DNA of 52,655 bases from Nemertoderma westbladi (GCA_032718475.1 JAUCBJ010007731.1:1-52655); one strand, 5' to 3'; positions 9,821 through 41,734 are shown, counted from the first letter of the stretch. Translations and numbers: made by a program. The notes: a model not told the origin generated them from the sequence alone.

Positions 9821-10081
9821 TTATTATTTATTTATTATTTATCGCGCCAATTGCGCGCAAGCGCTAGTCAAGCTAGCATTTATTTGAATTATTTTATTTA
9901 TATATTATATATTATTTATTTGTATTATCATAAAATGAAATAAAATATGTACAAAAATTACACAAAACCAAGGAAACAACCCTAGAAACAACGATGCGAG
10001 TAAAAACCAGTTACACTATATAATTCGCTGGCAACAATCTACCAGTTTATTGACACTATTGTTTGTGGGACCTGGGACACA

Positions 10082-15812: not shown

Positions 15813-15916
15813 GATCTCATAATGAGGTTTTGGTTCAGTTGGGACCTTGGAAGTATCCTTATCTGCGTGAGGTGGATTTGAAGATGGTTCATCTGCAGTC
15901 GGAGATGAAACTCGAC

Positions 15917-17155: not shown

Positions 17156-17428
17156 TTTACGGAGACGAGAGTAATCTATATCCAGAAATACGTGGACGCT
17201 AGCACTCGGCTAAACGCCCGTTCTGTCGATCCGAGGGATCGCTTGTTGAGGTCTCAGACGTGGTTGTAGGCTACGAACCCGGCCTCCAGCGAGTATTCTC
17301 TGCCAGAAACCTTCGCGCGCGTATTACAGTTGACAGAAGGTACAGCAAATAAAATAAAATAAAATCGGAGATAAAATTAAGTAAAAACGTTCCGTCAGAA
17401 CGAAGTTATAGATGTTCAAATAGTAGTA

Positions 17429-20422: not shown

Positions 20423-20437
20423 GTTACCCAAGGTAAA

Positions 20438-23400
20438 GTGAGTAACATAAAACCTAACTGTGCGCTGTGCGACGGGACCCACCGTTTGAGTGCGTGTGCC
20501 GAATTTCTAAAGAAATCCCTTGTAGACAGACGTGCAGTCGTGTGGGACAAGCGGTTATGCTATAATTGCCTCAGACCAGGACACCAACGGCGAACCTGTT
20601 ACTCCGACATAAAGTGTGCAAAGTGTGGCGCGAAACATCACATCTTGTTACACAGTGAGTTTGAACGAGACAAACAGAGTCAGGTAAGTGAGCCCGAACT
20701 ACATGTCCAATTCAGTGATGTAAATGACACTGATCAGGAGTCTGAGATGGAAGGATTCTATACTGACGAATTCTCCGACGCCAACGAATCCTGTTATCTA
20801 ATCAATACCGCAGTGTATCGAGCACTTACTTATGAAAAGGACACCAACAATGAGTTTCCCCCAACTACTTTTGCCAAACAACCATCTTGGAAAGCTCCAA
20901 CTTCCAACGTAGGAATCAGAGAATTTCCTGTAGTGCAGGTAAGAGTTCACGGTCCTAATCACAGTTACATAGTGAACGCACTCCTTGACTCCGGCAGCAC
21001 AGGAACATTCATCGATCAAGAATTAGCCGAAGATATCTTTGCTGGACAACCCAAATTCCGGACTAAATTGAATATGTCAGGAATTATGCAGGTTTGGAAA
21101 TCTACCCTAACGGCAGATTACTATGTAGGTGTGTTGTCCACCCCCCAGGATAAGTTAGGAGCACAAGGTATAAGGTCGGGAAAAATGGTGGCTATAAAGA
21201 ACTTCGCTACTACTCAAGCAGACCTTTATAATTGGGACGAGGATGAGAGCATCCAACATCTTAAGATACCTCGATTCCAGACAGATTATCCTGGAGTGCA
21301 AATACTCATCGGCCAAAACGCGCACGAGGCGCTCGAAACATTAGAGAAACGGCCTGCTCAACCGCAGCCACTGCAAACCTATGCGGTAAGAACTAGAGTA
21401 GGTTGGTACTTTACTGGCCCTTCCCGCAGGACTCTCGAAGAGAGAAGGCCACAAGAACGAGTATACCAGGTGAGTGATTGGAGCGAGGAGAGCAGTGAGG
21501 TGGATGAACTAACTGAGGAAACACCATACTCTTCAGATAATGACGACATCTACCAACTCTTCGATCAAGAGAACACCATCGACCTACTTACCAAAAACCA
21601 AACTTGGAAAAATCAGGTGAACCTATGTCAACTGATTCGCCCATCGGAACCCATCGCTTACAATGACGAACTAAACGATGAGATAGAGCGTTGCAACGCT
21701 AGAACTCGGGACGAACTAGCCGTACGATTCTTTACTCAAGAACTGGTAGAGCCCAATTCATATGATAAGGCCCTATCGATAGAAGAAGAAAGAGCCAAGC
21801 AAATCCAGGAAACAACTACACGTTTTTTAAAGGAACAAGGTAGATATGAAATCGGCCTACCATTTGGAAAACGAGAACCTAGATTTGTAAATAACAGACC
21901 CTTGGCAGAGAAAATAATCGCTCAATTGCATCGACGCCTTACGGCTAATACTTCAGCTGAAGAAATGTACCAAACTCAGCTGAAGAAATTTATAACAAAG
22001 GGATACGCGGAGCGAGTGCCGGAAGGAACACCAGTGACTGAGAGAACGTATTACTTAACACATCATTACGTTCCCAAACCCGGTAAACCCCATGAAGTCC
22101 GAGTCGTATTCGATGGCTCTGCGCTATATATGGGCCAATCCCTCAATTCCGAGTTGTTACCCGGACCCAACTTACTCCAATCTTTGTTGGGAATACTTTT
22201 GAGATTAAGACAATACTCCATCGCGTTCGCCTCCGATATCGAAGGAATGTTCTTACAAGTCAAGGTGCTGGATAGAGATAGAGACAGCCTGAGATTTCTG
22301 TGGTGGCCTGAAGGAGACCTCAATCAGAAACCGGTAGAGTACTGGATGACCATCCAGGCTTTTGGAATCATATCAAGCCCTTCCAACGCCTGCTCCGTGG
22401 TGCGAACCACTGCGAATGACAACCGAGACTCCTTCTCAAAAGAGGTGATAGACAACATCAAACGGAATATATACATGGACGACAATTTAAGGTCCCTTCC
22501 ATCAGTAGAAGAAGCCATAGATGTCGCGAAAGGAACGGTAGAGTGTTTGAAAAGAGGTGGATTCCGACTGACGAAATTCACCAGCAACTCCCGTGAGTTT
22601 CTGGAAGCGATACCGGTAGAAGACCGCGGAGCGAAAGACCTAGACTTAATAAAGGACGATCTTCCTGAAACCAAGACGCTTGGCTTGAAGTGGGACACTG
22701 AAAGAGACATCCTGTTTTTTCAGCTCAAACAGCGAGATAATCCAGTTCGGACCAAACGGATTTGTTTAAGTATCCTGAGCACTTATTTCGACCCATTGGG
22801 ATTTATTAGCCCAGTTATATTGATTGCTCGGAGTTTAGTACAACAAATGTGGCTTGAAAACCACTCATGGGACGATCCGCTTAAGGGAGAATTGTTAAAG
22901 AAATGGATGAAATGGGAAGATTCTCTACCTGCCATCGAGAACTTTATAATTTCCCGTACATATTTTGGCCATGTTCTTCCTACGTATTCCTATCAACTCC
23001 ATGTGTTTGGAGACGCCAGCGACATAGGAATAGGTATAGTAGCATATCTGCGAGTCGAAACCCCAGATGGAATCAAAGTCGCCTTGGTTACCTCTAAGGC
23101 ATTGATTAACAACAAGTTAAAGGTTCCTCGAGCGGAGTTAAAGGCGGCTTTATACGCTACAGCCATCGGCCAGAACGTAACGGAACAAATCGACTACCCA
23201 CTGGAGAAAACGGTTTATTGGACCGACGCTTTACTCGTGTTGGAGTATCTAACCAATGAAGTCTGTCAGTTCAGCGTTTTTGTTACTAACAGGGTAGCTA
23301 TTATTCTTAGTCGCACAAAGATAGATCAATGGAGACATTGCCCTGGTACGATTAATCCAGCCGATATCGCCTCCAGGGGAGCAACTCCACAGGAACTGAT

Positions 23401-23971
23401 AGATACTCCAGATTGGTTGGGTGGACCCGACTTCCTGAGCAAGGAAGAGGATGAATGGCCTCCTCACCCTACTACGGCAGAGATTAGACAAGCCAAGGGA
23501 GCGGAGACAGTCAAACCTAAAACCCGGGCGAGTAAATCGAAGTTATTTAAACCGACTATCGATCTATCTGTATTACATACTTCCGGGAATGATGCTTCGG
23601 ATCCACAATCCCTCAACACAAATAAGTCTGTTGTGGAAATTAGAGATAAAGATTGGAAATCTGGAATACCAGACGTCTCGCAAGGAATCTCACCCATGCT
23701 GCAGAGAGCAATGCATCATTACAGTTCCTGGAATCGGCTCTGTAAAGCCGTCACATATTTAAGACGATGTTTTCATCATCACTACTCCAGAACGAAGACC
23801 ACTAGTGATACCGCTCCATTGACATCTGCACAAGTTCATGTTATTAAAAATTTACCCAAATATAAGACATCTGACCATTTTATAAAGGAGAAAATTAGTC
23901 ACCAGGAGCATGAAGAAACCAATAGGCAGATACTGAGACTCCTGCAATGCTATGAAGATTCCGAAAAGTAA
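20438..23971 (+). CDS. pol: gag zinc knuckles + protease + reverse transcriptase + RNase H
   Basis: CALCDGTHRLSAC, CYNCLRPGHQRRTC, CAKCGAKHHILLH; LLDSGS; SDIEGMFLQV, YMDD; HVFGDAS, RAELKAA, WTDA, NPAD. Confidence 0.96.
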   Translation: MSNIKPNCALCDGTHRLSACAEFLKKSLVDRRAVVWDKRLCYNCLRPGHQRRTCYSDIKCAKCGAKHHILLHSEFERDKQSQVSEPELHVQFSDVNDTDQESEMEGFYTDEFSDANESCYLINTAVYRALTYEKDTNNEFPPTTFAKQPSWKAPTSNVGIREFPVVQVRVHGPNHSYIVNALLDSGSTGTFIDQELAEDIFAGQPKFRTKLNMSGIMQVWKSTLTADYYVGVLSTPQDKLGAQGIRSGKMVAIKNFATTQADLYNWDEDESIQHLKIPRFQTDYPGVQILIGQNAHEALETLEKRPAQPQPLQTYAVRTRVGWYFTGPSRRTLEERRPQERVYQVSDWSEESSEVDELTEETPYSSDNDDIYQLFDQENTIDLLTKNQTWKNQVNLCQLIRPSEPIAYNDELNDEIERCNARTRDELAVRFFTQELVEPNSYDKALSIEEERAKQIQETTTRFLKEQGRYEIGLPFGKREPRFVNNRPLAEKIIAQLHRRLTANTSAEEMYQTQLKKFITKGYAERVPEGTPVTERTYYLTHHYVPKPGKPHEVRVVFDGSALYMGQSLNSELLPGPNLLQSLLGILLRLRQYSIAFASDIEGMFLQVKVLDRDRDSLRFLWWPEGDLNQKPVEYWMTIQAFGIISSPSNACSVVRTTANDNRDSFSKEVIDNIKRNIYMDDNLRSLPSVEEAIDVAKGTVECLKRGGFRLTKFTSNSREFLEAIPVEDRGAKDLDLIKDDLPETKTLGLKWDTERDILFFQLKQRDNPVRTKRICLSILSTYFDPLGFISPVILIARSLVQQMWLENHSWDDPLKGELLKKWMKWEDSLPAIENFIISRTYFGHVLPTYSYQLHVFGDASDIGIGIVAYLRVETPDGIKVALVTSKALINNKLKVPRAELKAALYATAIGQNVTEQIDYPLEKTVYWTDALLVLEYLTNEVCQFSVFVTNRVAIILSRTKIDQWRHCPGTINPADIASRGATPQELIDTPDWLGGPDFLSKEEDEWPPHPTTAEIRQAKGAETVKPKTRASKSKLFKPTIDLSVLHTSGNDASDPQSLNTNKSVVEIRDKDWKSGIPDVSQGISPMLQRAMHHYSSWNRLCKAVTYLRRCFHHHYSRTKTTSDTAPLTSAQVHVIKNLPKYKTSDHFIKEKISHQEHEETNRQILRLLQCYEDSEK

Positions 23972-23977
23972 TTCCTA

Positions 23978-25357
23978 TTGTTGAGAAATCCGCAGATGCG
24001 CTTAAGGGATCGATTCTCGAGCACAATGATAGATGGGTTAATACGTGTTGGAGGAAGACTCACCAACGCGCCCTTATCCTTTGACACCAAATTCCCCATA
24101 CTTATTAGAAATCTTGAAGTACAAATCAAGATGATTGTAGATGTTCACAGTAAACTTTATCATGCTGGTAGAGAACGAATTCTTAGCGAAATTCGAACTC
24201 GCTATTATTTTGATAAACCCCGTAGAGCTCTGAACCAAGTTCTTAGGAACTGCATACCCTGTAGGAAAGCATTCAGTAGGCCTTTAACACAGCGAGAGGC
24301 AGAATTACCTAGGGAACGAGTAAGCTTCTATGAACCACCTTTTACTAATACTGGTGTAGATTTATTTGGCCCTATTGAAGTATATCGTGCGAGGACTATA
24401 GTCAAGAGATGGTGTGTCATCTTCGTGTGCATGACTTGTAGAGCCATCCATCTCGATATGGTGAACGATCTATCTACCAACAGCTTCGTCTTAAGTTTAC
24501 AACGACAGATCGCTCGCTTCGGGACGAGTAATACCATGAGATCGGATAAGGGAACGAACTTCATTGGTGCCAACAACGAAATACAGGCTTACGTGAAGGA
24601 CTGGAACCAACGACAGGTGGACGACCAGCTAAGGATAACAGCGTCTAGCTGGACCTTCAACGCCGCCGACGCCCCTTGGTGGGGAGGAAGTTGGGAGAGA
24701 TTAATTCGAAGTGTCAAAACCGCATTTCACTTTATAGTGCCATGCCGCGCGTATCTCACCGACGAACTTTTGCGGACGTTAATGGAGGAAATAGCTGCCT
24801 ATCTCAACGAGAGACCGCTTATGCCAGTCTCATCGAGTCCCGATTCCCTAGAAGCGTTAACACCCGCGCACTTCCTACTGAAGAAACCTGTAGCCATGCT
24901 CCCACGATCGGAGATTGCCGACGGAGACGAATACTGCCGTCGAACTTGGCAACTTATGCAGTTGCTATCCCATCGTTTCGCTGACCATTTCGAGAAACAT
25001 TATCTGCCCACGCTACAACTTCGAACTAAGTGGTTTGCGCAGCAAGAAAACGTCAGCGCCGGAGATATGGTGCTTATTGTAGATCCAGACCTCCCACGTA
25101 AACGGTGGCAGACAGGTCGTATCATCGAGACTCACATCTCGGATGATGGTTTAGTGCGCTCAGTAGAACTTGTCGTCATGCAGCGTAACTTCAAGAAGCC
25201 AGGCATAATCTTTGAGACGCAACAACTCAATCGCCCAGTTGGTCGTTTATGTTTACTGGAAAGAGACAGAGAACTCTCTGGAAACTATGGAAGGCAAGAC
25301 ACTCTTCCCACGACCACCTCCCTAATTCCTCAAACATCTAGGGACTCCCCAACGTGA
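23978..25357 (+). CDS. pol: Integrase (in frame with upstream pol after one TAA)
   Basis: HHCC (HSKLYH...CIPC) and DDE core GVDLFGP / SDKGTNF / WERLI. BEL-type C-terminus LQLRTKW...DGLVRSV. Confidence 0.96.
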   Translation: MLRNPQMRLRDRFSSTMIDGLIRVGGRLTNAPLSFDTKFPILIRNLEVQIKMIVDVHSKLYHAGRERILSEIRTRYYFDKPRRALNQVLRNCIPCRKAFSRPLTQREAELPRERVSFYEPPFTNTGVDLFGPIEVYRARTIVKRWCVIFVCMTCRAIHLDMVNDLSTNSFVLSLQRQIARFGTSNTMRSDKGTNFIGANNEIQAYVKDWNQRQVDDQLRITASSWTFNAADAPWWGGSWERLIRSVKTAFHFIVPCRAYLTDELLRTLMEEIAAYLNERPLMPVSSSPDSLEALTPAHFLLKKPVAMLPRSEIADGDEYCRRTWQLMQLLSHRFADHFEKHYLPTLQLRTKWFAQQENVSAGDMVLIVDPDLPRKRWQTGRIIETHISDDGLVRSVELVVMQRNFKKPGIIFETQQLNRPVGRLCLLERDRELSGNYGRQDTLPTTTSLIPQTSRDSPT

Positions 25358-26791
25358 TACGTCTGGAGTGGGTGTATGACTATATTGTTTTATCTATTTT
25401 ATTACATTTTTATATGCGAACTTTATTATGTACTTTATTATAATCGTTTTTATTCAATTTTATTTAGTAGAATGTTATTCTAGTGATTATTTAGTGGATT
25501 AGTGCGATATGTTAGTGTTTATTACGTACGTAATTACTTATAATATATATTTAGTGTGACGGCGAGAAAATAATCATTTTTCTCTTTCCTTACTGTCCGT
25601 ATCATATTGTAAATACATGACTACAGTAAGATGAAATGTCCGTACTTATTAAAGTACAATAAAGCCACTACTATATTCAAGTATTATTGGTAGGCAGAGT
25701 ATTAGGAATGCAAAGTTCAGATCCTCGTGTCTCAGCTAAACCAAGCTCTGGGTAGACCTTGGAAACGACTTGCCTCTTCACACTGACATTGCTTCGTGCG
25801 ATATTGCTCTTCTACCTTATATTAAATAATACATATAGTAGCGTGATGTCCCTCTAACAGTAGCGTAAAACGCAAATAAATCTGTTAAACCTTTTGACCA
25901 TCTGTAATTCTCGTCGATTAAGATATCGCGGCACCCACCGATATACTTGAAAGACAAATTCTAGAATCAGTGGTTAATGTCCCCAGACAAGTTCTGGAAT
26001 AAATCGGTGCCCATCTTAAATATTAATTTAATATTTAGTAAAATCTGTAAAATTCAGATCCGTTAACAATTCTAGTCGATTAAGATATCGTAGCACTTAC
26101 CGATACTCTTAAAAGACAAATTTCATAGAATTAAGGATCCTATGTCCCCAGACCTGCTCTGGAATCAAATTGTGTCAATTTTAACATCAAATAATAAAAT
26201 TCACGGGAATAAATTTAAATTCATATTTTAAATGAATTTCATAAATTGTCATTTTTGTACAATTTATAACATTCCCAAAATTCCATTAATTAATAGATCA
26301 TGGGAGCGGAGATTCATCCTATTTAGTGTATTAGAGTGCGAGAATCTCCAACATATAGTCAATAGCCGATAAAATTAATAAAATCATGCATAAAGAGGAT
26401 ATTGACAACTAAAGAATTATTATTAAATAGCATCCCAGATCTGTATGCATGAGAATTACCCTAATTCTACCGCTAGCATTCCATAATGTCACCATAGCAA
26501 CACCCACGCTAGAATTAGAAGCAAGTTAAAAGAACAATAGAAAGCTTGTCCCATTGCATAGCATAGAGAATATAGCACACTGCTAGTATCCAAGGATACA
26601 CAGTAATAACGTGACATTCTGGAAGGCACTGACTAATGGACAAATGGCCTGTATGTGTGCAGTTGGTGACAGTTGTGTGGAATTTGTGCGTTTATAGGTG
26701 AATGTTACTGCTAAAGTATGTTTACAGTAGCTAGTCGCAATTGTAAAAGTAGCCCAACTCTCCTATAGAAAGAACCTAAGTGGATCCAAGC

Positions 26792-26942: not shown

Positions 26943-26983
26943 AATATAAACTTATTTGATATTAATAAACTCAGATAGCAGAG

Positions 26984-29002
26984 ATGACGGAGTTGATAGA
27001 AGATGATCTTGGTATTAGGGAGCGATATACTCTACCTTTACAAGCATTTGTGGATAGCTTAATACGCGGTGAAGCCGATCCAACCATTATGGAGGACGAT
27101 GGTCGTTATATCGAACCGCCGATGTCCCAAGAGCAACTCGCGCGTGAATTGGACTATCGAAAATTCACCACTCGTTATACGAATCGTAATGGTACGTATA
27201 TGGACTTCTTAACGACCGGCCATCCTATCGATTTACAGGATACGGACGATGTAGATACAGAGAGGGAAATGGTTCTATTTAAATATCATACCCAGCGGAG
27301 TCGTAACGATAAACCGAGAATAGATCACGAAAATTCTATTCGTAATAGACTGGAAAGAGAAAACATCGAAGAACCGGATAAACATATCGACTTCAACGAA
27401 TACCTAGAATTTTTGAGAGAAACCTATCTCAACATCGCTAGTCAGCAGAACTTAGAGACTCGATATCCTCAAGGTATACACCACAACCCTGTGGCAGAAC
27501 TCAAACGGCTCTATTTCACTATGATGTATCTTACCGCCGATCGTCCCCTACCTGTTATCCCGGATAGTTTTGAACAAATGGAAGAATATTGCAAAACTGG
27601 AGAACGTTCACCCGCGTTTCCTCTACAGGATGTACGTCTTTGGTATTATTGTGACGAATGCCCTAGACCCAACCAACAAACTGAAAGACACAAACATCCG
27701 CGGAGACGTTGCGCTAAACATAGTTTTACGCGTTACACTTACGGGAGTTTCGAGCGAAACCTGTTCGACATACCACCCACGATCGCTCGTCTTAAACGAT
27801 CACTGAATAAACCCATGATCAGAGTTCCGGAATACTCGGTCAGGCCTCCTCATTCCCTAGTGAGACCTCAAACTCTTGATCCTAACAGTATCACTGATCC
27901 TCCCGAACTATATTCCTTGTTCAAAGACTTAGTGTTACCCGAACAATTAATCGGTGGTGCTCCGGTAGTGGGTTCGTTAGACATCCGCCCATCCTACTTA
28001 GCCGGATTGGGACGCGGGCAGCTAATATCGCCCTTTGATCCTTACAATCGTCCAGGATTAAACCCGATGCAACCCGCCACGGAAGTCGAGGAGAGCGTTA
28101 TAAGAAACGCTTTAGACGCCATTCGACAGAAAATCGGAAAGGGAACACAAGATTGTTTAGAGAAACGTAAACTACAGCAACAAGTACAATCGGTGAAGGA
28201 GTTAGCCTTGCCACAGTTCGATAGAGAAATCCAAAACCTCGAGGAAGACATCGAGCTTGGACGCACGTATTCTCTACAAGAATTTTTAGATGAATGCTTA
28301 CAGAGACAAGCGGAAGAAATTCTACTCGAGGAGAAACACACGAAACTGGAAGAGAGAGAAGAAGCCGCTTTAGCCCAACCGGAAGCTCAAATCCTCATGA
28401 CGGACCTCTACTCTAAAACCGTTCGTCATCCCTCGATGATTCCACATTTCGGGGACAAGCTCTTCGCGACGATACAACCTCAACCGGTTGATATCAGTAC
28501 AGGATCGCAAAATCTTATCGCTGACGCCCCTATGTTACAGCGTCCGCCGATCGAGGCCGCTCGTGTTGACGGTATACTCGTTGAACCTCCGGACAATCGA
28601 GCGGATCTTGTCCGTCGTATGGTACACGATGTCAACATACGCGCTAGACCCTTACAGAACTCGTTTTATGGGATCAAAGACCACCCTTATTACGTTAATC
28701 TGACTCAATATTATATGGTAAAACCAGAAGACCCGACACATAATTTAAAGTTTCTACCACTGATAAATCCTCTAGACATTGTCGAACTCGAACAATTGCA
28801 GAAACATCTGGATCAGTTAGTAAAGGTAAACTCATTTAGAAAACCATATAACATTTCTCGAATCGAGAAAGATATAGAACCTCCTTATAATCTCGATGGA
28901 TTTATTAAAACTCGATTAGTCCATTGGAATCTAGATGTATTATTTGAAGAGGAGAAAATACAAAGATATAAAATGTGGAGACGTATACCACTCGGCATAT
29001 GA
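26984..29002 (+). CDS. Accessory ORF3a, 672-aa unknown protein (CxxC...CxxH motif, coiled coil)
   Basis: Long ORF between pol and the 3' LTR; N-terminus conserved in copy A. No signal peptide, furin site or TM helix seen, so it is not env-like. Confidence 0.85.
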   Translation: MTELIEDDLGIRERYTLPLQAFVDSLIRGEADPTIMEDDGRYIEPPMSQEQLARELDYRKFTTRYTNRNGTYMDFLTTGHPIDLQDTDDVDTEREMVLFKYHTQRSRNDKPRIDHENSIRNRLERENIEEPDKHIDFNEYLEFLRETYLNIASQQNLETRYPQGIHHNPVAELKRLYFTMMYLTADRPLPVIPDSFEQMEEYCKTGERSPAFPLQDVRLWYYCDECPRPNQQTERHKHPRRRCAKHSFTRYTYGSFERNLFDIPPTIARLKRSLNKPMIRVPEYSVRPPHSLVRPQTLDPNSITDPPELYSLFKDLVLPEQLIGGAPVVGSLDIRPSYLAGLGRGQLISPFDPYNRPGLNPMQPATEVEESVIRNALDAIRQKIGKGTQDCLEKRKLQQQVQSVKELALPQFDREIQNLEEDIELGRTYSLQEFLDECLQRQAEEILLEEKHTKLEEREEAALAQPEAQILMTDLYSKTVRHPSMIPHFGDKLFATIQPQPVDISTGSQNLIADAPMLQRPPIEAARVDGILVEPPDNRADLVRRMVHDVNIRARPLQNSFYGIKDHPYYVNLTQYYMVKPEDPTHNLKFLPLINPLDIVELEQLQKHLDQLVKVNSFRKPYNISRIEKDIEPPYNLDGFIKTRLVHWNLDVLFEEEKIQRYKMWRRIPLGI

Positions 29003-30462
29003 AGTATAGTGATCTCCCCAACGCTAACCAATGCGCCACCTTGTGGCATCCAGTAGGGATGACCCTAGAGAACGCCACCAAGGAGTGGAATGAAACTCTT
29101 AATGTTATTGAGATGTATGGAGTTGTCACCTACGATAATGAAGGTAGCGTTCCGGTCGGAGAACTAGGAACTACGCGCATGATCCACATACGCGGATTAG
29201 CGGGTTCTACCCACGTGTTTACTCGAGCGTGTTCCGACGTGATTGATTATTCTTTTGAAACTCTCACCGAAACACAAAAGAATCTCCGACATGGACAATT
29301 CGAACTCGCGCAGCGTTACGTCATTGACACCGAATGCAAACCGGCCATGGGCATCGATGGATCGATGTTACCCCAACCCGTACTCGAGATGTTATTCAAC
29401 GAAAGCATCCTTAAAATCGGCTCAGCTGTTTATGGAGATCTCCAAAACGACTTTCGGAATATGGAGAACATTCCATACCCTTTCGTTGATACTCAGCTGA
29501 TTGCTCCCTGGGCAGAAGGTCGAGGTTTCTTCCGCACTATGTATGCTAATACGCCTAGCAACATTACAAAGGTGCAACGAACTTCCATCGGACATCTTGC
29601 CTTTCAGGAATACGGATGGAATTTCAAAGTCGGAAATCCCATTAACTATCAACAAGTATACGGAGATCATTATTCTCGCTTGTACTTTGATGGACCATTA
29701 ACCGCACCTGGCGCCGTGTATAGCTTCATGAGTGTTCCACTCCGTCCCTCCTTAGCTACATACACGATCTTTGAAAATACCGCACTTGCCGGTTGGCTAG
29801 CCGATGTGTGCAGTCGTACTATACGCGCCCATCCATTAATACTTGGGACCAAACTCGCTAAGCTAGATGAACATAATAAATTCATCCGTTTCGAATGTTT
29901 CCGGCGATTTTTAACCCCGTTCCGCAACGTGGATAGCCAATTTAAAGACCGCGCTTTGACCAAGCTCAGCCTAAGAAACTCAGCTGCAGAGAAGTTGGAT
30001 AGCGCTGGATTCGCCGTTTTCCAAGAGATTTGTATATCGAACTTGCACTCCTCTGTTATACAAAGACCTCGAATCCCCACAGGTTATTCTGTCGTTGAAA
30101 TTCAGACAATAGGTCCACCTGAAGAGACAGACGCGCCCACTTCAGCTATGCACTTGGAAGACGAACCAATATGTCTAGAATCTGAAGAGATTCAGCCTAT
30201 CGCGCCCCGGAACAGCGACAACGATTACATCATAGAATGGTATCAAGGTCCACAGTGTCTCACTGCGTACGATTATCGACATGCCAACTATGTTTCTAGG
30301 CAACGTTGTCGGTTATGCGCATCGAGAGACCACGATACGCCCATGGACACCAACGTCCGCTGTTCCTATTTCCAAGAACATTTTTGCGGTTTGCCCTCAA
30401 TTTATGACTCAATGGCACCATTGTCAACTAAAGGGATGCGCCAGTTTCGATTGCCCTTTTAA
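28975..30462 (+). CDS. Accessory ORF3b: DEDDy 3'-5' exonuclease-like domain (WRN/EXD/Mut-7/RNase D type) + first zinc finger
   Basis: ExoI GVVTYDNEG; LPQPVLEMLFNESILKIGSAVYGD (ExoII); FVDTQLIA; SIGHLAFQEYGWNFK; ExoIII-like PLRPSLATYTIFE. Confidence 0.72.
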   Translation: METYTTRHMKYSDLPNANQCATLWHPVGMTLENATKEWNETLNVIEMYGVVTYDNEGSVPVGELGTTRMIHIRGLAGSTHVFTRACSDVIDYSFETLTETQKNLRHGQFELAQRYVIDTECKPAMGIDGSMLPQPVLEMLFNESILKIGSAVYGDLQNDFRNMENIPYPFVDTQLIAPWAEGRGFFRTMYANTPSNITKVQRTSIGHLAFQEYGWNFKVGNPINYQQVYGDHYSRLYFDGPLTAPGAVYSFMSVPLRPSLATYTIFENTALAGWLADVCSRTIRAHPLILGTKLAKLDEHNKFIRFECFRRFLTPFRNVDSQFKDRALTKLSLRNSAAEKLDSAGFAVFQEICISNLHSSVIQRPRIPTGYSVVEIQTIGPPEETDAPTSAMHLEDEPICLESEEIQPIAPRNSDNDYIIEWYQGPQCLTAYDYRHANYVSRQRCRLCASRDHDTPMDTNVRCSYFQEHFCGLPSIYDSMAPLSTKGMRQFRLPF

Positions 30463-31186
30463 TCACGATTTGGAAAGCGTAGATGAAATGATCACACTAC
30501 GTTACATCAGAGCTTGGGAAGCGAACGCTGATTTACATTGTGATTCGCGCCATCGCTATTATCCTGGACGCGCTTACGAAGGAGTTTATGCGTTCCATCC
30601 TTATCTATTCGCTTCGGTCGAACAGAAATCACGCATATCGAGTTACGAGCTACTGAAGCGCGTCGGAGAATGTATTTCAACCAAATTCGTACGCAAATTT
30701 CTCAGGAGTGTTAATCCTAGCGACCTTCATTCCTATAACTTAATCAATTATATCCGTCAGGATCCGGACTATGGAGACTTATTTGTTAACTCACACCCCG
30801 AGTTACAGGAAGTATATCGACGGCCTTACGAATACCGAGCCCGCGAACGCGAGTTGGAAAGAACCATTAAACCCCGGAGGTTTCTGACTGCCTATGGTCC
30901 ACCCACGGCTCTCGTTCAGACCACTCGTAAAGGACCCGTAAGAGCGGCTGTCTTAAAACGCGCTCTCAAAGCCGTTAGACCCCTCTCCCCCGACGTTGAT
31001 GTCAATCAACCCGGTACTTCTACTGGCGGATACACCGACCATAATCCTATACCCTCTGATGCAATCATATTGCACCCTTCACCCAGGAGCTATAGCCCTC
31101 CTTGTAAAGTGGCTCGCCCCAAAGAGAAAAGGACTCTGGCTAGCTTTAAAAAACTGCGTAAACGCCGTCCGCACAAGAAAGACTAA
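30281..31186 (+). CDS. Accessory ORF3c: zinc-knuckle/basic C-terminus, originally continuous with ORF3b
   Basis: A 50-nt deletion at ~30380 relative to copy A (~3274-3323) shifts the frame; copy A reads straight through. Confidence 0.8.
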   Translation: MPTMFLGNVVGYAHRETTIRPWTPTSAVPISKNIFAVCPQFMTQWHHCQLKGCASFDCPFNHDLESVDEMITLRYIRAWEANADLHCDSRHRYYPGRAYEGVYAFHPYLFASVEQKSRISSYELLKRVGECISTKFVRKFLRSVNPSDLHSYNLINYIRQDPDYGDLFVNSHPELQEVYRRPYEYRARERELERTIKPRRFLTAYGPPTALVQTTRKGPVRAAVLKRALKAVRPLSPDVDVNQPGTSTGGYTDHNPIPSDAIILHPSPRSYSPPCKVARPKEKRTLASFKKLRKRRPHKKD

Positions 31187-31255: not shown

Positions 31256-31264
31256 TGGGAGCGG
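31256..31264 (+). promoter_or_regulatory. Short polypurine tract before the 3' LTR
   Basis: TGGGAGCGG directly abuts the LTR TG in both copies (also 4199-4207). Confidence 0.6.
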
Positions 31265-32542
31265 TGTAAAAGCTTCTGTGGGATATAACTGGCCCCTTTG
31301 CTTCGCAATCCAGTTTCCCCCCAGGCGCTGGAATACTCTAAAAGGTTCTCTAACTGTACATATATTCCCCTCGCCCGCAAGGTACCGTTACAGGTGTTTT
31401 AACGGACATAAAAGTCATTCGTCTATATACCTGCTTTGGCGGACATGGTAAGGCAAAAAACCCTCAATGCACCAAATACCTTTACACAGCTTGGCCTTGA
31501 TGATTCAGATTGCGACATCTAGCAGCTGGTTGCTGGCATGGAAACAGCCATTGGACGCACGGTTCTTTGTTTGGTTTGAGCCAATCAGAGCGATTTTTTC
31601 TGTCGACGTGTAGATATTCGGCCGATGATACTAGGAGTGTTCTGTCTTACTGTTTTTTCTTGATATACTTTGTTGTTGCTATCTAGGCCAGGAACACCGG
31701 CTCTAGAGTCAATTCGTTTTCATACTTTAGAAGAAACATTAGTAGGCTTAAATTATAGAGCGTATAACTGTTATCAGTTCAATCCAGTCCATATCATATA
31801 TCACATATCATACTGTTGTTCATATCATATCTTAACCTACCGTCTTAATGCTTTTACTGTTGTCATATTTTGTATTAGTTGGTTGAATATTATTTGGAGA
31901 ACATTTATAAAGAACCCAAATTTCCCAATTCTCTTGATACACTACAGGTTAGAGAGATGGGTTATATATAGCGATTGCGACTTATATTATTGTGGTTTGT
32001 AGTGAATTTAATGCTATTTGATAAGCACTACATGGGTCCGTTGCTGTTCTCTTTATATATGATAAAATTCATTGACGGTCGGCAAATTAGTGAGCAGTAT
32101 TGTGTGTTACCGGTAGTGTGCATGATTGTGACTGATAACTAAGCATTTCCTAAAGAATGCGCCTCATACGTGAATCATAAGCCTTACCGACTTACCGTTG
32201 TGATTAGTATAAGTCATATCTCTGTTTACTTAGATAGAGCGCCACGTCCTAAAGGAACTGTTAATATTTCCCGAAAGTGAATAATATTAGTCAGAAATTA
32301 TTTATTAACGATCAATCGAATAATACAATACAGTAAGCTTACACTGCAATAATAATCTAAGCCCTCAGAATCCAGTCTCCCGGGTATATCCAGCGGGTGA
32401 ATGGATGCGCACTAGGCTGGCTTCTGCTAATGTTGTGTTTATTGGTATTAAATATTTGTCATCTTCTAAAGTCTATTTATAAACCAAAAGACATATAAAT
32501 TTTGGCAGGTTAAACTGCTAAAGGTCTTCAAAAGCGCGTACA
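31265..32542 (+). repeat. 3' LTR of copy B (1278 bp)
   Basis: Near-identical to 6293-7570 and followed by the TSD AAGTT. Confidence 0.97.
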
Positions 32543-32993
32543 AAGTTCACATAAGATCTAAGTTCGCTTTGCTTTCAACGTTGGATCTAAGTTCACTTCT
32601 CGTCTATCATGATGATTTACCAAAGGCTTTAAATAGCATAAAGTGGGATCTAAGTTCACCCAGTAATGAAAAACATCTAGTTAGGATCTAAGTTCACACA
32701 GTTAAGATCTAAGTTCACCTAGGTGGGATCTAAGTTCACCCAGTTAGGATCTAAGTTCACCCAGTTAGGATCTAAGTTCACCTAGTTAGTATCTAAGTTC
32801 ACACAGATATGATCTATGTTCGCATATGTAGGACCTAAGTTCGCAAAGATCTAAGTTCATCAAAGTCAGGCCTTGCAGGATCTAAGTTCGTTTTACCGAT
32901 AGCTGATAGGCCTTGCAGGATCTAAGTTCGTTTTACCGATAGCTGATAGGCCTTGCAGGATCTAAGTTCGTTTTACCGATAGCTGATAGGCCT
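32543..32993 (+). repeat. GGATCTAAGTTC(A/G) motif array (left part at ~6228-6292), ending in three 40-bp tandem units
   Basis: More than 15 motif copies, many at ~20-bp spacing. aggccttgcaggatctaagttcgttttaccgatagctgat occurs three times at ~32868-32993. Confidence 0.88.
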
Positions 32994-33168
32994 TATGTCC
33001 GGCTGTCAGGACTCCTGTAAAGCTGTGCTGACTGGCTGAAGTCACTGCACACTGTGCACTGAGTCAGGCATTCTCTGATTCTCAGATTCTGGAGGTGTAA
33101 TCGTCAGATCGTAAACAATAACCTGATAGGGCCTAACGACTGAACGATAACAGAATAAAGTGAAGAGG

Positions 33169-33198: not shown

Positions 33199-35141
33199 GT
33201 AAGTTGCTATACTTGTATACGTCGGGCCACCCACATACTGCAGTACTGTAGGCCCTAATACCGTAATAGCTTTAGAATTAATCATATTTCTGTCTTTCAG
33301 ATGTCTGGCTATTGCTGTTCAGATTTAGGTCTACTTTTTAACAAAACGTTTAGACACGCAGACACGCACCAATATTCTGATATTATTACCGTATCTGATT
33401 ATTCCTTGTCCTCGGCGTCGGCAGCTCAAGTTCTGAAGTTAATTTCCATAGCCTATCCCCCATACCAGCATACTGCAGTACTGCCATACTGCCATACCAG
33501 CATACTGCCATACACATGATACAGCCATACATTGTACATGGCAGCATGATTGGATATTTCACAACGATCTATACACTAGGCTGCTAGGCACTCAGGCGAG
33601 GCCTATTCAAGTATTCTGGATTCCTGTATTCAGCCATTACCGGTAGCGGTACCAGATTACAGTATTCAGGTATTACCGGTAGGGTAGGCTTACTTACCGG
33701 TACCGTATCTCGGTCCTACCATTTGGAATACCGGTACTATTGACTATCCCGCCTACTATTAAATTATCCACAACAGCACTAAGCACGCTAAGACTAAACA
33801 ATGTTTTACCAAAAAGGAAACTACAAACGAAAAGTATCTACTCCAGTCCAGTACTCTCGCCTCGCATCTATCAGTCTATAGTATAATGGTACCGTATACA
33901 GGTCAGCAGGTACCCAGTACCGGTAGGCCTATCAGCTTATATAACTCAGACTAAGCTGCTAAGACAAATCTGCAAATAAACTTATAGAGCTGTAGAGTAC
34001 CGGTAGGCCTAGAAAAATTAATAAATTAAAATATAAATACCGGTAGGCCCTAAACAGCTAAACAAAAGATAAGTATGTCAGTATGTCATGGCTGCATGGT
34101 TAACTAGCTGTTTTTGAAGCAGTATTCTGTATTCTGTTTTTTTCCGAAAATGTGCTGGAGAGTTTTTCAAGATCTTCAAAAAACCTTTCAAACGAGCCAT
34201 AAATTTATCGAATTTGAGTCAAAATTGGCGGGGTACCGGTAGCTGGGTAGTATTTTGAAAAATTGATTAGAAACTTTCCCGCTCAAACATGTCTGTCTCT
34301 CTGTCTGTGGTCTGTTAATCGGCACTAATGTTTGGCACTATGCACTACTGACTACAGCACTATGGACTATGGCTGTATACCAAATCACTAAAATTATCAA
34401 TATGGGGGTTTCATAGTCGGTATTTCCATTCCGACGTCAATTTTAATGTTTGGTGGTATCTAATACTGTAATATGTCTGTGACGGTTTGTCTGTCTGTCT
34501 GTCTTCTAAATTGTGACGAACAAACTGCTGAACCGGTAGACAGTGATAACTTGAGAAGTCGAGAACTAAAAAAGATCCCGCCAAGCCGTCTTAAGATTTG
34601 AAATCCCCATTAAATTCTTCATCAAGATGAAATAAAAAATCAAAAATGTGAAAAAAGGTTTACCCCAGGAGCCACCCCCCCCCCCCCCCCCCCCTTTAAT
34701 TGAATTATGCCGTACTTCTTACAATTTATGTAGCTGCAAGCAAAGTGGAGCCCCCCTCCCATCGCCACCCCCCTCCCACCGCCACCCCCCTCCCTCAATC
34801 ACCACTTACAGACTTTTACGCTGTCGGACAGCTTTAAATCCAACAAAGTTATTAGCTTGTCAAAATAGTAACGCAGACGATAACTACAAATATTTCCCAT
34901 TACTGACCCACCACTCTAATAGTATCAGTTCGCTAAGGCACCGTCAACATCGTGGCTCGCCCCACAAGGTATCCTTATTAATTGTCATTTATAATTTTTG
35001 TACCGGTATATATTAATATAGTAACAGAAAGGATTGGTTATATTTTATTTGGTGCAATAATAATTGTTAAGTACCACCAACAATTATGTACCTTACACCC
35101 TTACAGTACATGCTGAATTACAATATAATCTACTATTGCAG

Positions 35142-35321
35142 GACGCGAACCTAACTTGGTACACGGATTCCCCACAACTTACAGAATGCTTCCAGCTTAC
35201 CGCCCTCTCCTGGGCTCCAACCGGGTTCTTTCTGCTAACCTTACCCTTGCACGTTTTATATTCTCTACGATTTTCTGTTAAACGAACTCTTCACATCCAC
35301 CCTATATATCTTTCTAAACTC
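35142..35321 (+). CDS. ABCC1: ABCC1/MRP-like exon 2
   Basis: tgcag| DANLTWYTDSPQLTECFQLTALSWAP...LSKL |gttagt; 180 nt, phase 0-0. Resembles MRP1 [26 protein letters not shown]. Confidence 0.88.
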
Positions 35322-35378
35322 GTTAGTATAATTTATATATGTTTAAACTGTAGTTCTACATTATTATTATTATGGTCT

Positions 35379-35752
35379 AGGTACAATACCGTGTCCTACT
35401 ACGGTATGGTACACCACACCGTGCCATACTAACGGTGTGGTACACCTTACTATTCCCTACTACGGTATGGTACACCACACCGTGCCATACTAACGGTGTG
35501 GTACACCTTACTATTCCCTACTACGGTATGGTGCACCATACTGTGCCCTACTTCGGTGTGGTACACCATACCGCGCCCTACTGCGGTATGGTACACCATA
35601 CCGCGCCCTGCTACGGTGTGGTACACCTTACTGTGCCCTAGTACGGTGTGGTACACCACACCGTGCCATACTAACGGTGTCGTACAGCTTACCGTGTCCT
35701 ACTACGGTATGGTACACCATACCGTGCCCTACTACAGTATGATGTACCATAC
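35379..35752. repeat. 30-31-bp minisatellite (~12 copies) with self-complementary units
   Basis: Unit ggtacaccataccgtgccctactacggtat; ccataccgt pairs with acggtatgg. Confidence 0.88.
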
Positions 35753-36235
35753 CTTAAGATTTATCTCACAAAAAAGTTTATCGGTAAATAGTTTATCTAA
35801 AAGTAATTTGGAAGGATATTGGCTACTATGATGGGTCTGTTTCTTCCAACCGATATATTTAGTTTTGATACCAGTACCGGTACTGTATTAAATAACTTAG
35901 TGTATATAATAACAATAATAAATATCAAATAATTTCCGATATGATTTTTACCCTGTGACTGCAAACTAATCGTTTTATCGTGTTGCCTTTACTTATGTAT
36001 CAGTGCAATGGAAAGCAATGAATGGCAGACTGAATGTTGTTTTACCCTTTAATCGTTTGTTTGTTTGTTTTAGCTTTAATTTAGTTTCTGCTGTCAATCT
36101 CTGATTATTTCTAATGGACAACGGAATGGGTTTAGGGAAACTTATAGAACTTATCGCAATTACAAACAACGCCAAGATTTTAAATTGTATTATTCCTGTA
36201 CCGGGTATACATTATATTAATAAAACATAACTCGA

Positions 36236-36277
36236 AGCAAACGTTTCGGAGCAATACAAGCAACCATCATCAGTGCA
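36236..36277 (-). ncRNA. Minimal hammerhead-ribozyme-like motif (Penelope type), possibly degenerate
   Basis: Minus strand tgca-CTGATGA-tggttgcttgtattgctcc-GAAA-cgtt-tgc. Core boxes and a palindromic AACGTT stem III are present; stems I and II are weak. Confidence 0.4.
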
Positions 36278-36342
36278 GTTTATTGCAATTTAATGATCAA
36301 TATATATTCGGTCTAATCTAGTCGCTGCTATACTGGTCAATG

Positions 36343-39300
36343 AACTTTACTAACTTTACTTTACTAACCTTTACTATCTAACTTTACTTTACTAACCTTT
36401 ACTATCTAACTTTACTTTACTAACCTTTACTATCTAACTTTACTTTACTAACCTTTACTAACTAACTTTACTTTACTAACCTTTACTATCTAACTTTACT
36501 TTACTAACCTTTACTATCTAACTTTACTTTACTAACCTTTACTATCTAACTTTACTTTACTAACCTTTACTAACTAACTTTACTTTACTAACCTTTACTA
36601 TCTAACTTTACTTTACTAACCTTTACTATCTAACTTTACTTTACTAACCTTTACTATCTAACTTTACTTTACTAACCTTTACTAACTAACTTTACTTTAC
36701 TAACCTTTACTATCTAACTTTACTTTACTAACCTTTACTATCTAACTTTACTTTACTAACCTTTACTATCTAACTTTACTTTACTAACCTTTACTAACTA
36801 ACTTTACTTTACTAACCTTTACTATCTAACTTTACTTTACTAACCTTTACTAACTAACTTTACTTTACTAACCTTTACTATCTAACTTTACTTTACTAAC
36901 CTTTACTATCTAACTTTACTTTACTAACCTTTACTATCTAACTTTACTTTACTAACCTTTACTATCTAACTTTACTTTACTAACCTTTACTATCTAACTT
37001 TACTTTACTAACCTTTACTAACTAACTTTACTTTACTAACCTTTACTATCTAACTTTACTTTACTAACCTTTACTAACTAACTTTACTTTACTAACCTTT
37101 ACTATCTAACTTTACTTTACTAACCTTTACTATCTAACTTTACTTTACTAACCTTTACTATCTAACTTTACTTTACTAACCTTTACTATCTAACTTTACT
37201 TTACTAACCTTTACTATCTAACTTTACTTTACTAACCTTTACTATCTAACTTTACTTTACTAACCTTTACTATCTAACTTTACTTTACTAACCTTTACTA
37301 TCTAACTTTACTTTACTAACCTTTACTATCTAACTTTACTTTACTAACCTTTACTATCTAACTTTACTTTACTAACCTTTACTATCTAACTTTACTTTAC
37401 TAACCTTTACTATCTAACTTTACTTTACTAACCTTTACTATCTAACTTTACTTTACTAACCTTTACTATCTAACTTTACTTTACTAACCTTTACTAACTA
37501 ACTTTACTTTACTAACCTTTACTATCTAACTTTACTTTACTAACCTTTACTAACTAACTTTACTTTACTAACCTTTACTATCTAACTTTACTTTACTAAC
37601 CTTTACTATCTAACTTTACTTTACTAACCTTTACTATCTAACTTTACTTTACTAACCTTTACTATCTAACTTTACTTTACTAACCTTTACTATCTAACTT
37701 TACTTTACTAACCTTTACTAACTAACTTTACTTTACTAACCTTTACTAACTAACTTTACTTTACTAACCTTTACTATCTAACTTTACTTTACTAACCTTT
37801 ACTATCTAACTTTACTTTACTAACCTTTACTATCTAACTTTACTTTACTAACCTTTACTATCTAACTTTACTTTACTAACCTTTACTAACTAACTTTACT
37901 TTACTAACCTTTACTAACTAACTTTACTTTACTAACCTTTACTAACTAACTTTACTTTACTAACCTTTACTATCTAACTTTACTTTACTAACCTTTACTA
38001 TCTAACTTTACTTTACTAACCTTTACTATCTAACTTTACTTTACTAACCTTTACTATCTAACTTTACTTTACTAACCTTTACTATCTAACTTTACTTTAC
38101 TAACCTTTACTATCTAACTTTACTTTACTAACCTTTACTATCTAACTTTACTTTACTAACCTTTACTATCTAACTTTACTTTACTAACCTTTACTATCTA
38201 ACTTTACTTTACTAACCTTTACTATCTAACTTTACTTTACTAACCTTTACTATCTAACTTTACTTTACTAACCTTTACTATCTAACTTTACTTTACTAAC
38301 CTTTACTATCTAACTTTACTTTACTAACCTTTACTATCTAACTTTACTTTACTAACCTTTACTATCTAACTTTACTTTACTAACCTTTACTATCTAACTT
38401 TACTTTACTAACCTTTACTATCTAACTTTACTTTACTAACCTTTACTATCTAACTTTACTTTACTAACCTTTACTATCTAACTTTACTTTACTAACCTTT
38501 ACTATCTAACTTTACTTTACTAACCTTTACTATCTAACTTTACTTTACTAACCTTTACTATCTAACTTTACTTTACTAACCTTTACTATCTAACTTTACT
38601 TTACTAACCTTTACTATCTAACTTTACTTTACTAACCTTTACTATCTAACTTTACTTTACTAACCTTTACTATCTAACTTTACTTTACTAACCTTTACTA
38701 TCTAACTTTACTTTACTAACCTTTACTATCTAACTTTACTTTACTAACCTTTACTATCTAACTTTACTTTACTAACCTTTACTATCTAACTTTACTTTAC
38801 TAACCTTTACTATCTAACTTTACTTTACTAACCTTTACTATCTAACTTTACTTTACTAACCTTTACTATCTAACTTTACTTTACTAACCTTTACTATCTA
38901 ACTTTACTTTACTAACCTTTACTATCTAACTTTACTTTACTACCTTTACTATCTAACTTTACTTTACTAACCTTTACTATCTAACTTTACTTTACTAACC
39001 TTTACTACTAACTTTACTCCTTTACTATCTAACTTTACTTTACTAACCTTTACTATCTAACTTTACTTTACTAACCTTTACTATCTAACTTTACTTTACT
39101 AACCTTTACTATCTAACTTTACTTTACTAACCTTTACTATCTAACTTTACTTTACTAACCTTTACTATCTAACTTTACTTTACTAACCTTTACTAACTAA
39201 CTTTACTTTACTAACCTTTACTATCTAACTTTACTTTACTAACCTTTACTATCTAACTTTACTTTACTAACCTTTACTATCTAACTTTACTTTACTAACC

Positions 39301-40675
39301 TTTACTATCTAACTTTACTTTACTAACCTTTACTATCTAACTTTACTTTACTAACCTTTACTATCTAACTTTACTTTACTAACCTTTACTATCTAACTTT
39401 ACTTTACTAACCTTTACTATCTAACTTTACTTACTTACTAACCTTTACTATCTAACTTTACTTTACTAACCTTTACTATCTAACTTTACTTTACTAACCT
39501 TTACTATCTAACTTTACTTTACTAACCTTTACTATCTAACTTTACTTTACTAACCTTTACTATCTAACTTTACTTTACTAACCTTTACTATCTAACTTTA
39601 CTTTACTAACCTTTACTATCTAACTTTACTTTACTAACCTTTACTATCTAACTTTACTTTACTAACCTTTACTATCTAACTTTACTTTACTAACCTTTAC
39701 TATCTAACTTTACTTTACTAACCTTTACTATCTAACTTTACTTTACTAACCTTTACTATCTAACTTTACTTTACTAACCTTTACTATCTAACTTTACTTT
39801 ACTAACCTTTACTATCTAACTTTACTTTACTAACCTTTACTATCTAACTTTACTTTACTAACCTTTACTATCTAACTTTACTTTACTAACCTTTACTATC
39901 TAACTTTACTTTACTAACCTTTACTATCTAACTTTACTTTACTAACCTTTACTATCTAACTTTACTTTACTAACCTTTACTATCTAACTTTACTTTACTA
40001 ACCTTTACTATCTAACTTTACTTTACTAACCTTTACTATCTAACTTTACTTTACTTACTAACCTTTACTATCTAACTTTACTTTACTAACCTTTACTATC
40101 TAACTTTACTTTACTAACCTTTACTATCTAACTTTACTTTACTAACCTTTACTAACTAACTTTACTTTACTAACCTTTACTATCTAACTTTACTTTACTA
40201 ACCTTTACTATCTAACTTTACTTTACTAACCTTTACTATCTAACTTTACTTTACTAACCTTTACTATCTAACTTTACTTTACTAACCTTTACTATCTAAC
40301 TTTACTTTACTAACCTTTACTATCTAACTTTACTTTACTAACCTTTACTATCTAACTTTACTTTACTAACCTTTACTATCTAACTTTACTTTACTAACCT
40401 TTACTATCTAACTTTACTTTACTAACCTTTACTATCTAACTTTACTTTACTAACCTTTACTATCTAACTTTACTTTACTAACCTTTACTATCTAACTTTA
40501 CTTTACTAACCTTTACTATCTAACTTTACTTTACTAACCTTTACTATCTAACTTTACTTACTAACCTTTACTATCTAACTTTACTTTACTAACCTTTACT
40601 AACTAACTTTACTTTACTAACCTTTACTATCTAACTTTACTTTACTAACCTTTACTAACTAACTTTACTTTACTA
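36343..40675. repeat. 28-bp tandem satellite, ~154 copies
   Basis: Unit tttactaacctttactatctaactttac with a recurring tatc>taac variant. No G on the + strand. Confidence 0.97.
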
Positions 40676-41178
40676 CATTGCTGTATTAATAACATATTGT
40701 GTTTCGCTTTGCTTTTTATTTTTGCTGTGTTTGTTGACATTATCATTTGAATTTCATTTCTAAGATATTGAACAAATTTTTTTTTATAAAATAAAGTTAT
40801 ATTTTAGACTTTAACAGTCCAACTCTTTTGAAAATAGACCAAACCGGGACAATTACTAAAATATTATTATATGTTACGTCAGAAAATAGGCAAGAAATGT
40901 CTGATTAAGATATGTATTAAAAAATAATATAATAAAATGTAGATTCTTAGTATAAATAATCCACATGAATTAACGATTTTTGATACCGTCATTAATTTCC
41001 TGTAAATTTGGAAGAAAAAAACCAGCATTTTGTGTTGCACGACACCAACCCGGCCTTCTAGGGATCAACACCGTTAAGTTATCTAACATTATTATGAAAC
41101 GAAATATTTGCCGTAACATATTGTGTGAGGCGTTTCTGATTCAGCGCTTAATAAATTGACAATATTAATGTTTAACAG

Positions 41179-41295
41179 ATAATCTGCGTTCTCCAAGTTG
41201 TCAGCTCTTTCGTTGATATCTTCTGGTGCTACCACTACATATCCAGTGTTCCAACGGTATACCTCGTTACAAATACAGTTTGGATCGTTACTGGG
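41179..41295 (+). CDS. ABCC1: ABCC1/MRP-like exon 3
   Basis: aacag| IICVLQVVSSFVDIFW...YLVTNTVWIVTG |gttaga; 117 nt, phase 0-0; hydrophobic TMD0 helices. Confidence 0.75.
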
Positions 41296-41624
41296 GTTAG
41301 ATATTATTAATATTTATTGCTACACAGGGATTTATATGAATGCGAGAAGTATATAAAGGGCGGCCATAGGATAATCCTGATTGATTTACCAAAAGTTGCA
41401 TCTAATATGCAATAGAGATTGTGTATCTTGATATTGCTGGTGACTCATTAATTCTCTTTAACTACCCACCTTTACAGTATAGACACTAGTAGGTTTAGGG
41501 TAACACATACTTACTGTTCAGTTTACAAGCCTTTACCTAATTATATTTAATTGATAAAAGAAGGAGAAACACAATATATATCCAATAAACTACTTTATAT
41601 TCCGGTACTATTATTCTGTTCTAG

Positions 41625-41734
41625 ATTTCTTTGTTTATATGGATTTATTATCTAAACCGTCTCGGTTCTACAACCTCAGACTATCTAACCATCATTTGGC
41701 TCCTTTTTGTGGTCGCCGGCGCTTTTCGTTTAAG
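41625..41734 (+). CDS. ABCC1: ABCC1/MRP-like exon 4
   Basis: ttctag| ISLFIWIYYLNRLGSTTSDYLTIIWLLFVVAGAFRL(R) |gtaagt; phase 0-2. Parallels MRP1 RRKGVQSSGIMLTFWL. Confidence 0.78.

Follow-up and report, generated by a model that had tools for sequence, protein, structure and literature searches.

The window analysed here is a stretch of 52,655 nucleotides from the Nemertoderma westbladi assembly (GCA_032718475.1, JAUCBJ010007731.1:1-52655), and it contains, on the + strand, a BEL/Pao-type retrotransposon (6293-32542) with an additional gene, open reading frame 3 (ORF3, 26984-31186), located between the integrase and the 3' long terminal repeat (LTR). The two LTRs (6293-7570 and 31265-32542) are each 1,278 bases long, show 7 mismatches in 1278 bases and both have TG...CA termini. 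They are bordered by a 5-base target-site duplication with the same letters on the left (6288-6292) and right (32543-32547), and a short, purine-rich tract (31257-31264, + strand) lies ahead of the 3' LTR. The gag-pol region (17381-25357, + strand) has Pfam matches to DUF1759, Peptidase_A17 (the Pao retrotransposon peptidase, E 2e-36), Integrase_H2C2 and DUF5641, and the order of the motifs DSG, YMDD (at 22472) and GDAS fits protease, reverse transcriptase (RT), RNase H and integrase. DUF1759 and DUF5641 are taken by us to be BEL/Pao markers, and, judged by its domain content, the element is assigned to BEL/Pao. An earlier, sequence-only reading of the window had described about 4.2 kb of sense coding sequence between integrase and 3' LTR within a duplication-bounded BEL/Pao element, and the LTRs, the duplication and the Pfam matches all agree with this. 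ORF3 begins 1.6 kb past pol and ends 78 bases short of the 3' LTR. A sister copy, internally deleted and lacking most of pol and the exonuclease described below, is found at the start of the window (1-5472, + strand, 3' LTR at 4208-5472).

In the present copy ORF3 is broken twice and appears as three overlapping + strand frames (26969-29002, 28972-30462 and 30236-31186). Contigs from four public sequencing runs, three of organism A and one of organism B, were compared with the window, and all 30 bins of the ORF3 region were covered by contigs of other copies at 80-99+% identity. The first frame break (28968-28970) is private to this copy, with an indel present in 14 of 14 covering contigs across the 4 runs, and in two long contigs (run X4 record 21 and run X5 record 27) the sole gap is at 28970 and of a size that fits one continuous frame. 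Four contigs at most have a second indel near 28970, its net frame effect unread (26 indel rows were outside those inspected). The second break (30379-30380) is also private; the stretch missing here, which includes most of zinc knuckle 2, is present in the sister and in contigs of other copies. Since both breaks are absent from other copies, the family ORF3 is most simply a single continuous ORF, estimated at about 1,400 codons. The possibility that its first two frames form a programmed frameshift or stop-restart pair (stop/ATG overlap at 28999-29002) was rejected, as 14 of 14 contigs differ at 28970.

The predicted layout of the ORF3 protein is an N-terminal region of about 660 amino acids, an exonuclease-like domain, an acidic linker, three zinc knuckles, a helical-looking domain and a basic tail, so that about three-quarters of it lies outside the exonuclease domain. 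The N-terminal region (26984-28969) has no transmembrane segment and gave no match in Pfam, NCBIfam or the PDB, and a single PHROG match at E 0.1. A Cys/His cluster at 27650-27720 within it, with no Pfam match, may be an additional zinc site. The zinc-finger module noticed in the sequence-only reading was confirmed as three knuckles, all intact in the sister (3200-3397), with knuckles 2 and 3 damaged in the present copy. Translation gives CX2CX4HX9C for knuckle 1 (30307-30363), and knuckle 3 (30413-30454), in which two ligands are altered here, is a canonical CX2CX4HX4C in the sister; other copies vary at 30437-30438, within knuckle 3. The C-terminal domain (30464-30871), followed by the basic tail, is conserved according to the ratio of nonsynonymous to synonymous change (dN/dS) against the sister, has no Pfam or PDB match, and gave an unusable single-sequence structure model, with a predicted local distance difference test (pLDDT) score of 44. 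No transmembrane anchor was found in any part of ORF3 (top 19-residue hydropathy 1.21 or less), and an env identity was rejected on this ground and because of the enzyme-like domain.

The exonuclease-like domain (29104-29820, + strand, ends approximate) is located in the middle of ORF3 and resembles the RNase D/PF01612 group of DEDDy exonucleases, relative to which it carries two insertions of about 30 amino acids. The ordered motifs listed in the sequence-only reading are all present where it placed them: Exo I D-x-E (29134-29142), the Exo II Asp (29437-29439), VDTQ (29485-29496), SIGHLA (29584-29601) and Exo III Y-x3-E (29761-29775), the last with Glu in place of the DEDDy Asp. A phmmer search over 1.84 billion representatives returned one match, P0001 (648 amino acids, E 2.6e-6, 30% identical), which shows D-V-E, D and, as in the window, Y-x3-E-N, followed by an acidic linker and three CCHC-type knuckles. 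In the global alignment A5, residues D46 and E48 (Exo I), K139, D147 (Exo II, within the locally aligned core) and Y255 (Exo III) are invariant across 29 rows, and both A5 and a script alignment place Exo I, the Exo II Asp and the Exo III Tyr in DEDDy order and spacing.

Profile and embedding tests point in the same direction. A hidden Markov model (HMM) built from 32 RNase D, NrnC-like and PolA exonuclease domains scored the window domain at 14.5 bits and P0001 at 16.1 bits, against maxima of 4.8 and 7.7 bits, respectively, in 500 shuffles each. An hhalign comparison gave a probability of 94% and a score of 53.5 (maximum 24 in 60 column shuffles), and NCBIfam returned an RNase D match at E 0.0049 over 46 residues. 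In the embedding-based Atlas the domain scored 0.93, with 28-41% of members of the top clusters carrying PF01612 and 10 of the 10 best family matches belonging to one family or clan. Alignment A1, which consists of three rows (P0001 and two stretches of the window), was also used for a blind profile search of 301 bacterial genomes, 39 of which were matched at E <= 0.1. Among 61 genomes with mapped PF01612 domains, 8 of 10 matches fell inside those domains when compared by hand, the remaining 2 being stop-containing noise; the places matched were mostly in frames of RNase D size, with 2 of 41 in frames of PolA size. PHROGs gave weak matches only, the best being 'exonuclease' at E 0.25. The positive tests are not fully independent, because all share the Exo II core signal, and the fold assignment rests on sequence profiles. 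With shuffle-controlled profiles and the embedding both in its favour, the domain very probably has a DEDDy/DnaQ-type fold; the sequence-only reading had named the lack of any such fold in profile or structure searches as grounds for giving up the idea, and on the profile side the HMM and hhalign results speak against such a lack.

At the position four residues past the Exo III Tyr, where a DEDDy enzyme has Asp, the ORF3 domain has Glu, and it is therefore a D-E-D-E variant and not a canonical DEDDy enzyme. P0001 has the same residue, as do most of the copies in run X1, where none of 46 variant places (threshold 25%) could give Asp at 29773-29775; runs X3 and X5 show a few changes of the Asp-giving kind, at places mostly outside those listed. 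Decay of the present copy was rejected as the origin of the Glu for this reason. As it is common to other copies and to a protein only 30% identical, the D-E-D-E site is old, conserved and a trait of the family, in line with the Glu that the sequence-only reading had remarked upon.

Conservation across copies was examined in three runs, from which 3,803 contigs were aligned to 29110-29800. No indel reached 25% or more among these contigs, and 33 of the 40 best-supported variants (best 40 of 102 rows) are synonymous, 7 not, where a synonymous share of 0.23-0.30 is expected. The corresponding nonsynonymous/synonymous ratio is roughly 0.06-0.09, a value that is indicative only because the variant rows are phylogenetically dependent and a selected subset; none of the same 40 rows hits a catalytic codon. 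Against the sister copy, dN/dS is 0.10 for the N-terminal region (123 codons), 0.05 for the C-terminal domain (267 codons) and 0.22 for a stretch of pol (236 codons), and the linker was discarded as its alignment covered 5 codons only. The exonuclease domain is under purifying selection, and the ORF3 C-terminal domain of the sister subfamily is under strong constraint. A dN/dS near 1, or absence of the module from other members of the family, had been put forward as results that would refute the idea; the ratio is far from this, and contigs of other copies carry the domain. The family is abundant and diverse, with 22,306 and 7,070 contigs of other copies aligned in two DNA runs (contig depths were not taken as copy numbers).

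The sister copy had been cited as conserving both ends of the coding region, and both ends of its ORF3 are indeed kept, with about 27352 joined to about 30156; the intervening stretch (about 27353-30155) is deleted and includes the entire exonuclease. The sister therefore holds no information on that domain, and its use as support for the exonuclease was rejected. The identical deletion joint is present in runs X1, X4 and X5, and the exonuclease-less deletion derivative is a spreading non-autonomous subfamily.

P0001, the only homolog found, is a single-member cluster on a contig of 9,449 bases, lacks the long N-terminal region of ORF3, and has knuckles resembling those of retroviral nucleocapsid and AIR2. 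Word-based homolog searches found none among 2,304 candidates at near lengths or among 2,797 at longer lengths, and a search starting from the P0001 domain recovered P0001 itself only (1 of 1,350). Scanning of loci on viral and metagenome contigs brought up no relatives, phage records contained none (best E 4), and the DEDDy ORF3 proteins of rotifers were not among the phmmer matches. In the Atlas, P0001 lies nearest to a cluster from Euglenozoa that carries PF01612 plus zf-CCHC (0.86), which is a lead only. A giant-virus donor was considered and rejected, as the Atlas taxa are a lead only, with no alignment or tree behind it.

A possible use for such an enzyme is suggested by the region next to the 5' LTR. 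No tRNA-type primer site was seen directly 3' of the 5' LTR; the letters at that position (7571-7581, + strand) are the exact reverse complement of an 11-mer within the LTR (6792-6802, + strand), and form a candidate self-priming primer-binding site. Complementarity of at least 11 bases was reached by 3 of 1000 shuffles, the duplex is the best among all LTR windows, and 6 further pairs follow beyond a 3-base mismatch. The sister LTR keeps 10 of the 11 letters inside a region that is 64-67% alike. The pairing resembles Tf1-type self-priming. A self-primer would require an exact 3' end, and removal of a tail up to the duplex could supply one. The link between the exonuclease and a self-made primer is offered as a hypothesis, given that the 11-mer is almost a palindrome and that the position of the transcript start is unmapped.

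Our preferred reading, held tentatively, is that the ORF3 protein may be a knuckle-guided 3'-5' exoribonuclease that trims single-stranded 3' tails of the element's own RNA. The domain would be catalytic, since the five catalytic positions stay acidic or Tyr in proteins only 30% alike. The zinc knuckles would keep RNA in place at the active site, on the model of the RNase D of trypanosomes (TbRND), in which, according to the accessible text, exonuclease activity is greatly increased by zinc fingers that bind RNA (PMC7797062). The substrate would be the RNA of the element, either the 3' end of the self-made primer or tails on the genomic RNA, and the protein would act in trans because copies without the domain also spread. 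We regard as rather unlikely the further idea that tRNA priming was abandoned by the family and that its D-E-D-E RNase D, equipped with nucleocapsid-like knuckles, either gives the self-primer its mature 3' end or removes inactivating tails from the element's RNA. If true, this retrotransposon would possess a nuclease dedicated to end maturation and, together with P0001, would be the first member of an overlooked retroelement-borne family combining an exonuclease with three knuckles.

Several observations weigh against the exoribonuclease reading. Locally, the profiles match over no more than the 46-54 columns that surround Exo II, the placement of Exo I and Exo III rests on the global alignment, and MAFFT shifted Exo I elsewhere in 3 of 6 alignments. 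Pfam gave no match for the domain at E <= 1, no exonuclease was among the matches of a PDB sequence search, and the single-sequence model of the domain is unusable (pLDDT 29), so that the DEDDy match proposed in the sequence-only reading gains support from profiles and embedding and none from the structure model. The Exo III Asp of TbRND is a ligand of metal A and is important for the enzyme (PMC7797062, accessible text), and with Glu at this place activity may be weaker or different. Egalitarian keeps all five DEDDy residues, which the available portion of its source describes as dispensable for binding RNA and for function in vivo (bioRxiv 2025.08.03.668247). Lastly, the present data do not identify the substrate.

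The retention of four acidic positions and the Tyr between proteins 30% alike counts against the idea of an RNA-binding adaptor, in which the DEDDy fold would serve as a binding surface and the protein, aided by its knuckles and long N-terminal region, would package, protect or transport the element RNA with catalysis weak or dispensable. Dead paralogs usually lose catalytic residues unevenly, which also counts against it. We consider an adaptor doubtful, though the non-canonical Glu at Exo III, the nucleocapsid-like and AIR2-like knuckles and the roughly three-quarters of ORF3 beyond the exonuclease domain would all suit one, and there are precedents in Egalitarian, which binds RNA without its catalytic residues and whose cargo signals include I-factor retrotransposon RNA, and in Exd1, which is described as inactive (bioRxiv 2025.08.03.668247, available portion). 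Alternatively, the nuclease could be active and directed at the host, destroying or mis-trimming the precursors of PIWI-interacting RNAs (piRNAs) or small interfering RNAs (siRNAs) that silence the family; such a counter-silencing role is unlikely in our view, even if an abundant, diverse family and the spread of domain-less copies fit a trans-acting factor. The 3' ends of mature piRNAs are 2'-O-methylated and withstand enzymes of this kind, and this counts against it. The cellular relatives mut-7 and EXD1 do work in small-RNA pathways, but the DEDDy ORF3s of rotifers are without a clear copy-number link and are still covered by small RNAs (PMC5408684, accessible sections).

A role on DNA, in which the enzyme would trim complementary DNA (cDNA) ends or proofread, either in the course of reverse transcription or ahead of integration, is very unlikely. 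PF01612 takes in the WRN and PolA proofreading domains, and of the 2 blind-search places (of 41) in PolA-size frames one is inside a mapped PF01612 domain; against this, most blind-search places are in RNase D-size frames, ORF3 is 1.6 kb apart from pol, and the CCHC knuckles indicate RNA. It is also highly improbable that the motif order is coincidental, or the gene a neutral passenger, with no DnaQ-fold protein in use. Such a view could draw on the missing Pfam and PDB matches, the short local match, the low model score (pLDDT 29) and the deletion of the domain in the sister and in further copies, but it has to contend with the concurrence of shuffle-controlled profiles, blind genome search and Atlas, with a strong synonymous excess within the domain, and with P0001 as a distant homolog of the same layout.

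The present copy is dead, because gag-pol has two in-frame stops (20420-20422 and 23969-23971) and a long interspersed nuclear element (LINE; 9818-17326, - strand, ends approximate) is apparently inserted in the gag start. The LINE was recognised from Pfam matches to a Ulp1/C48 peptidase, an AP endonuclease and an RT, and is flanked by a 6-base direct repeat at 9818 and 17321, with a candidate gag ATG at 9683. Its Ulp1/C48 peptidase domain, which passes the Pfam cut-off at E 2.5e-5, is in a frame of 900 amino acids ahead of the endonuclease-RT frame, a repeat-rich frame of 430 amino acids is found upstream, and the only literature matches for a LINE with Ulp1/C48 were to work on human LINE-1. 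A long leader of 2.1 kb separates the 5' LTR from gag and contains direct repeats of about 290 bases (7895-8474). Direct repeats of about 100 bases occur in the spacer between pol and ORF3 (25906-26184), and the sister copy has them too. A degenerate minisatellite, its unit about 14 bases long, surrounds the element (6270-6292 and 32543-33000). Further downstream, 34828-42030 is possibly a foldback-type DNA element, in which a long, highly uniform 28-base tandem array (about 36200-40700) is enclosed by inverted repeats that are about 135 bases in length and 73% alike, and a long A/C-rich repeat region starts at about 45000, beside what remains of the integrase (Integrase_H2C2, rve) of a further LTR element (51336-52118, - strand).

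The closest known parallels are the Juno, Vesta and Athena/Terminon elements of bdelloid rotifers, which carry an RNase D-like DEDDy ORF3 with a DEED motif (Rodriguez et al. 2017, PMC5408684), an observation to which the sequence-only reading had already pointed and that is restated in later reviews (PMC6338049, PMC6431247, PMC5718144; accessible parts). In Juno and Vesta, as in the present element, a third ORF follows pol in the position of env, encodes an RNase D-like DEDDy domain and is without transmembrane segments, and in both cases the catalytic motif departs from DEDD (D-E-D-E here, DEED in rotifers). The element described here differs in being BEL/Pao, in the size of its gene, about 1,400 codons, in the three knuckles and the two conserved regions of no known family that this gene encodes, and in its purifying selection, whereas the rotifer study, as far as its accessible sections go, sequenced only env- and GDSL-type ORF3s, which were near neutral within a genome (PMC5408684). 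Those sections do not mention BEL/Pao, the available part of PMC7968707 has nothing on retrotransposons, and a 2026 survey of env-bearing elements, in the portion available, lists BEL/Pao with glycoprotein genes only and does not use the word exonuclease. The env-bearing BEL/Pao elements (roo, and mosquito elements with a chuvirus-like glycoprotein) also have an extra gene behind pol, but theirs are fusion glycoproteins (PMC13524379, accessible text), unlike ORF3 with its enzyme-like domain and lack of a transmembrane segment. No BEL/Pao element with a DEDD exonuclease, or with a DEDE motif, was found in the literature, a search whose scope excluded Repbase, subscription journals and supplements. 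An exonuclease ORF3 is apparently undescribed in BEL/Pao, the idea being the same as in the rotifer case.

Among cellular proteins, TbRND is similarly organised, several CCHC fingers coming after a domain of the RNase D type. TbRND, however, belongs to the cell, has a canonical DEDD motif and four fingers, and acts by trimming U-rich guide RNA (PMC7797062, accessible text); ORF3 is element-borne, its Exo III has Glu, its knuckles number three and its acidic linker is long. Egalitarian and EXD1 likewise have a DEDDy domain within a large protein with other RNA-binding parts; they are host genes for which the available portion of the source does not mention CCHC knuckles (bioRxiv 10.1101/2025.08.03.668247), and neither gave a sequence match to the ORF3 domain in PDB sequence searches.

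Exonucleases in the position of env have been reported once, in rotifers, without evidence of selection or function, and are now seen in a second superfamily. Here they belong to an abundant family, with purifying selection, a conserved non-canonical site and a putative RNA-binding module for which TbRND provides a mechanistic model. With a domain of about 250 amino acids intact in the window, the question of whether captured nucleases process the retrotransposon's own RNA or counter host small-RNA silencing is made testable.

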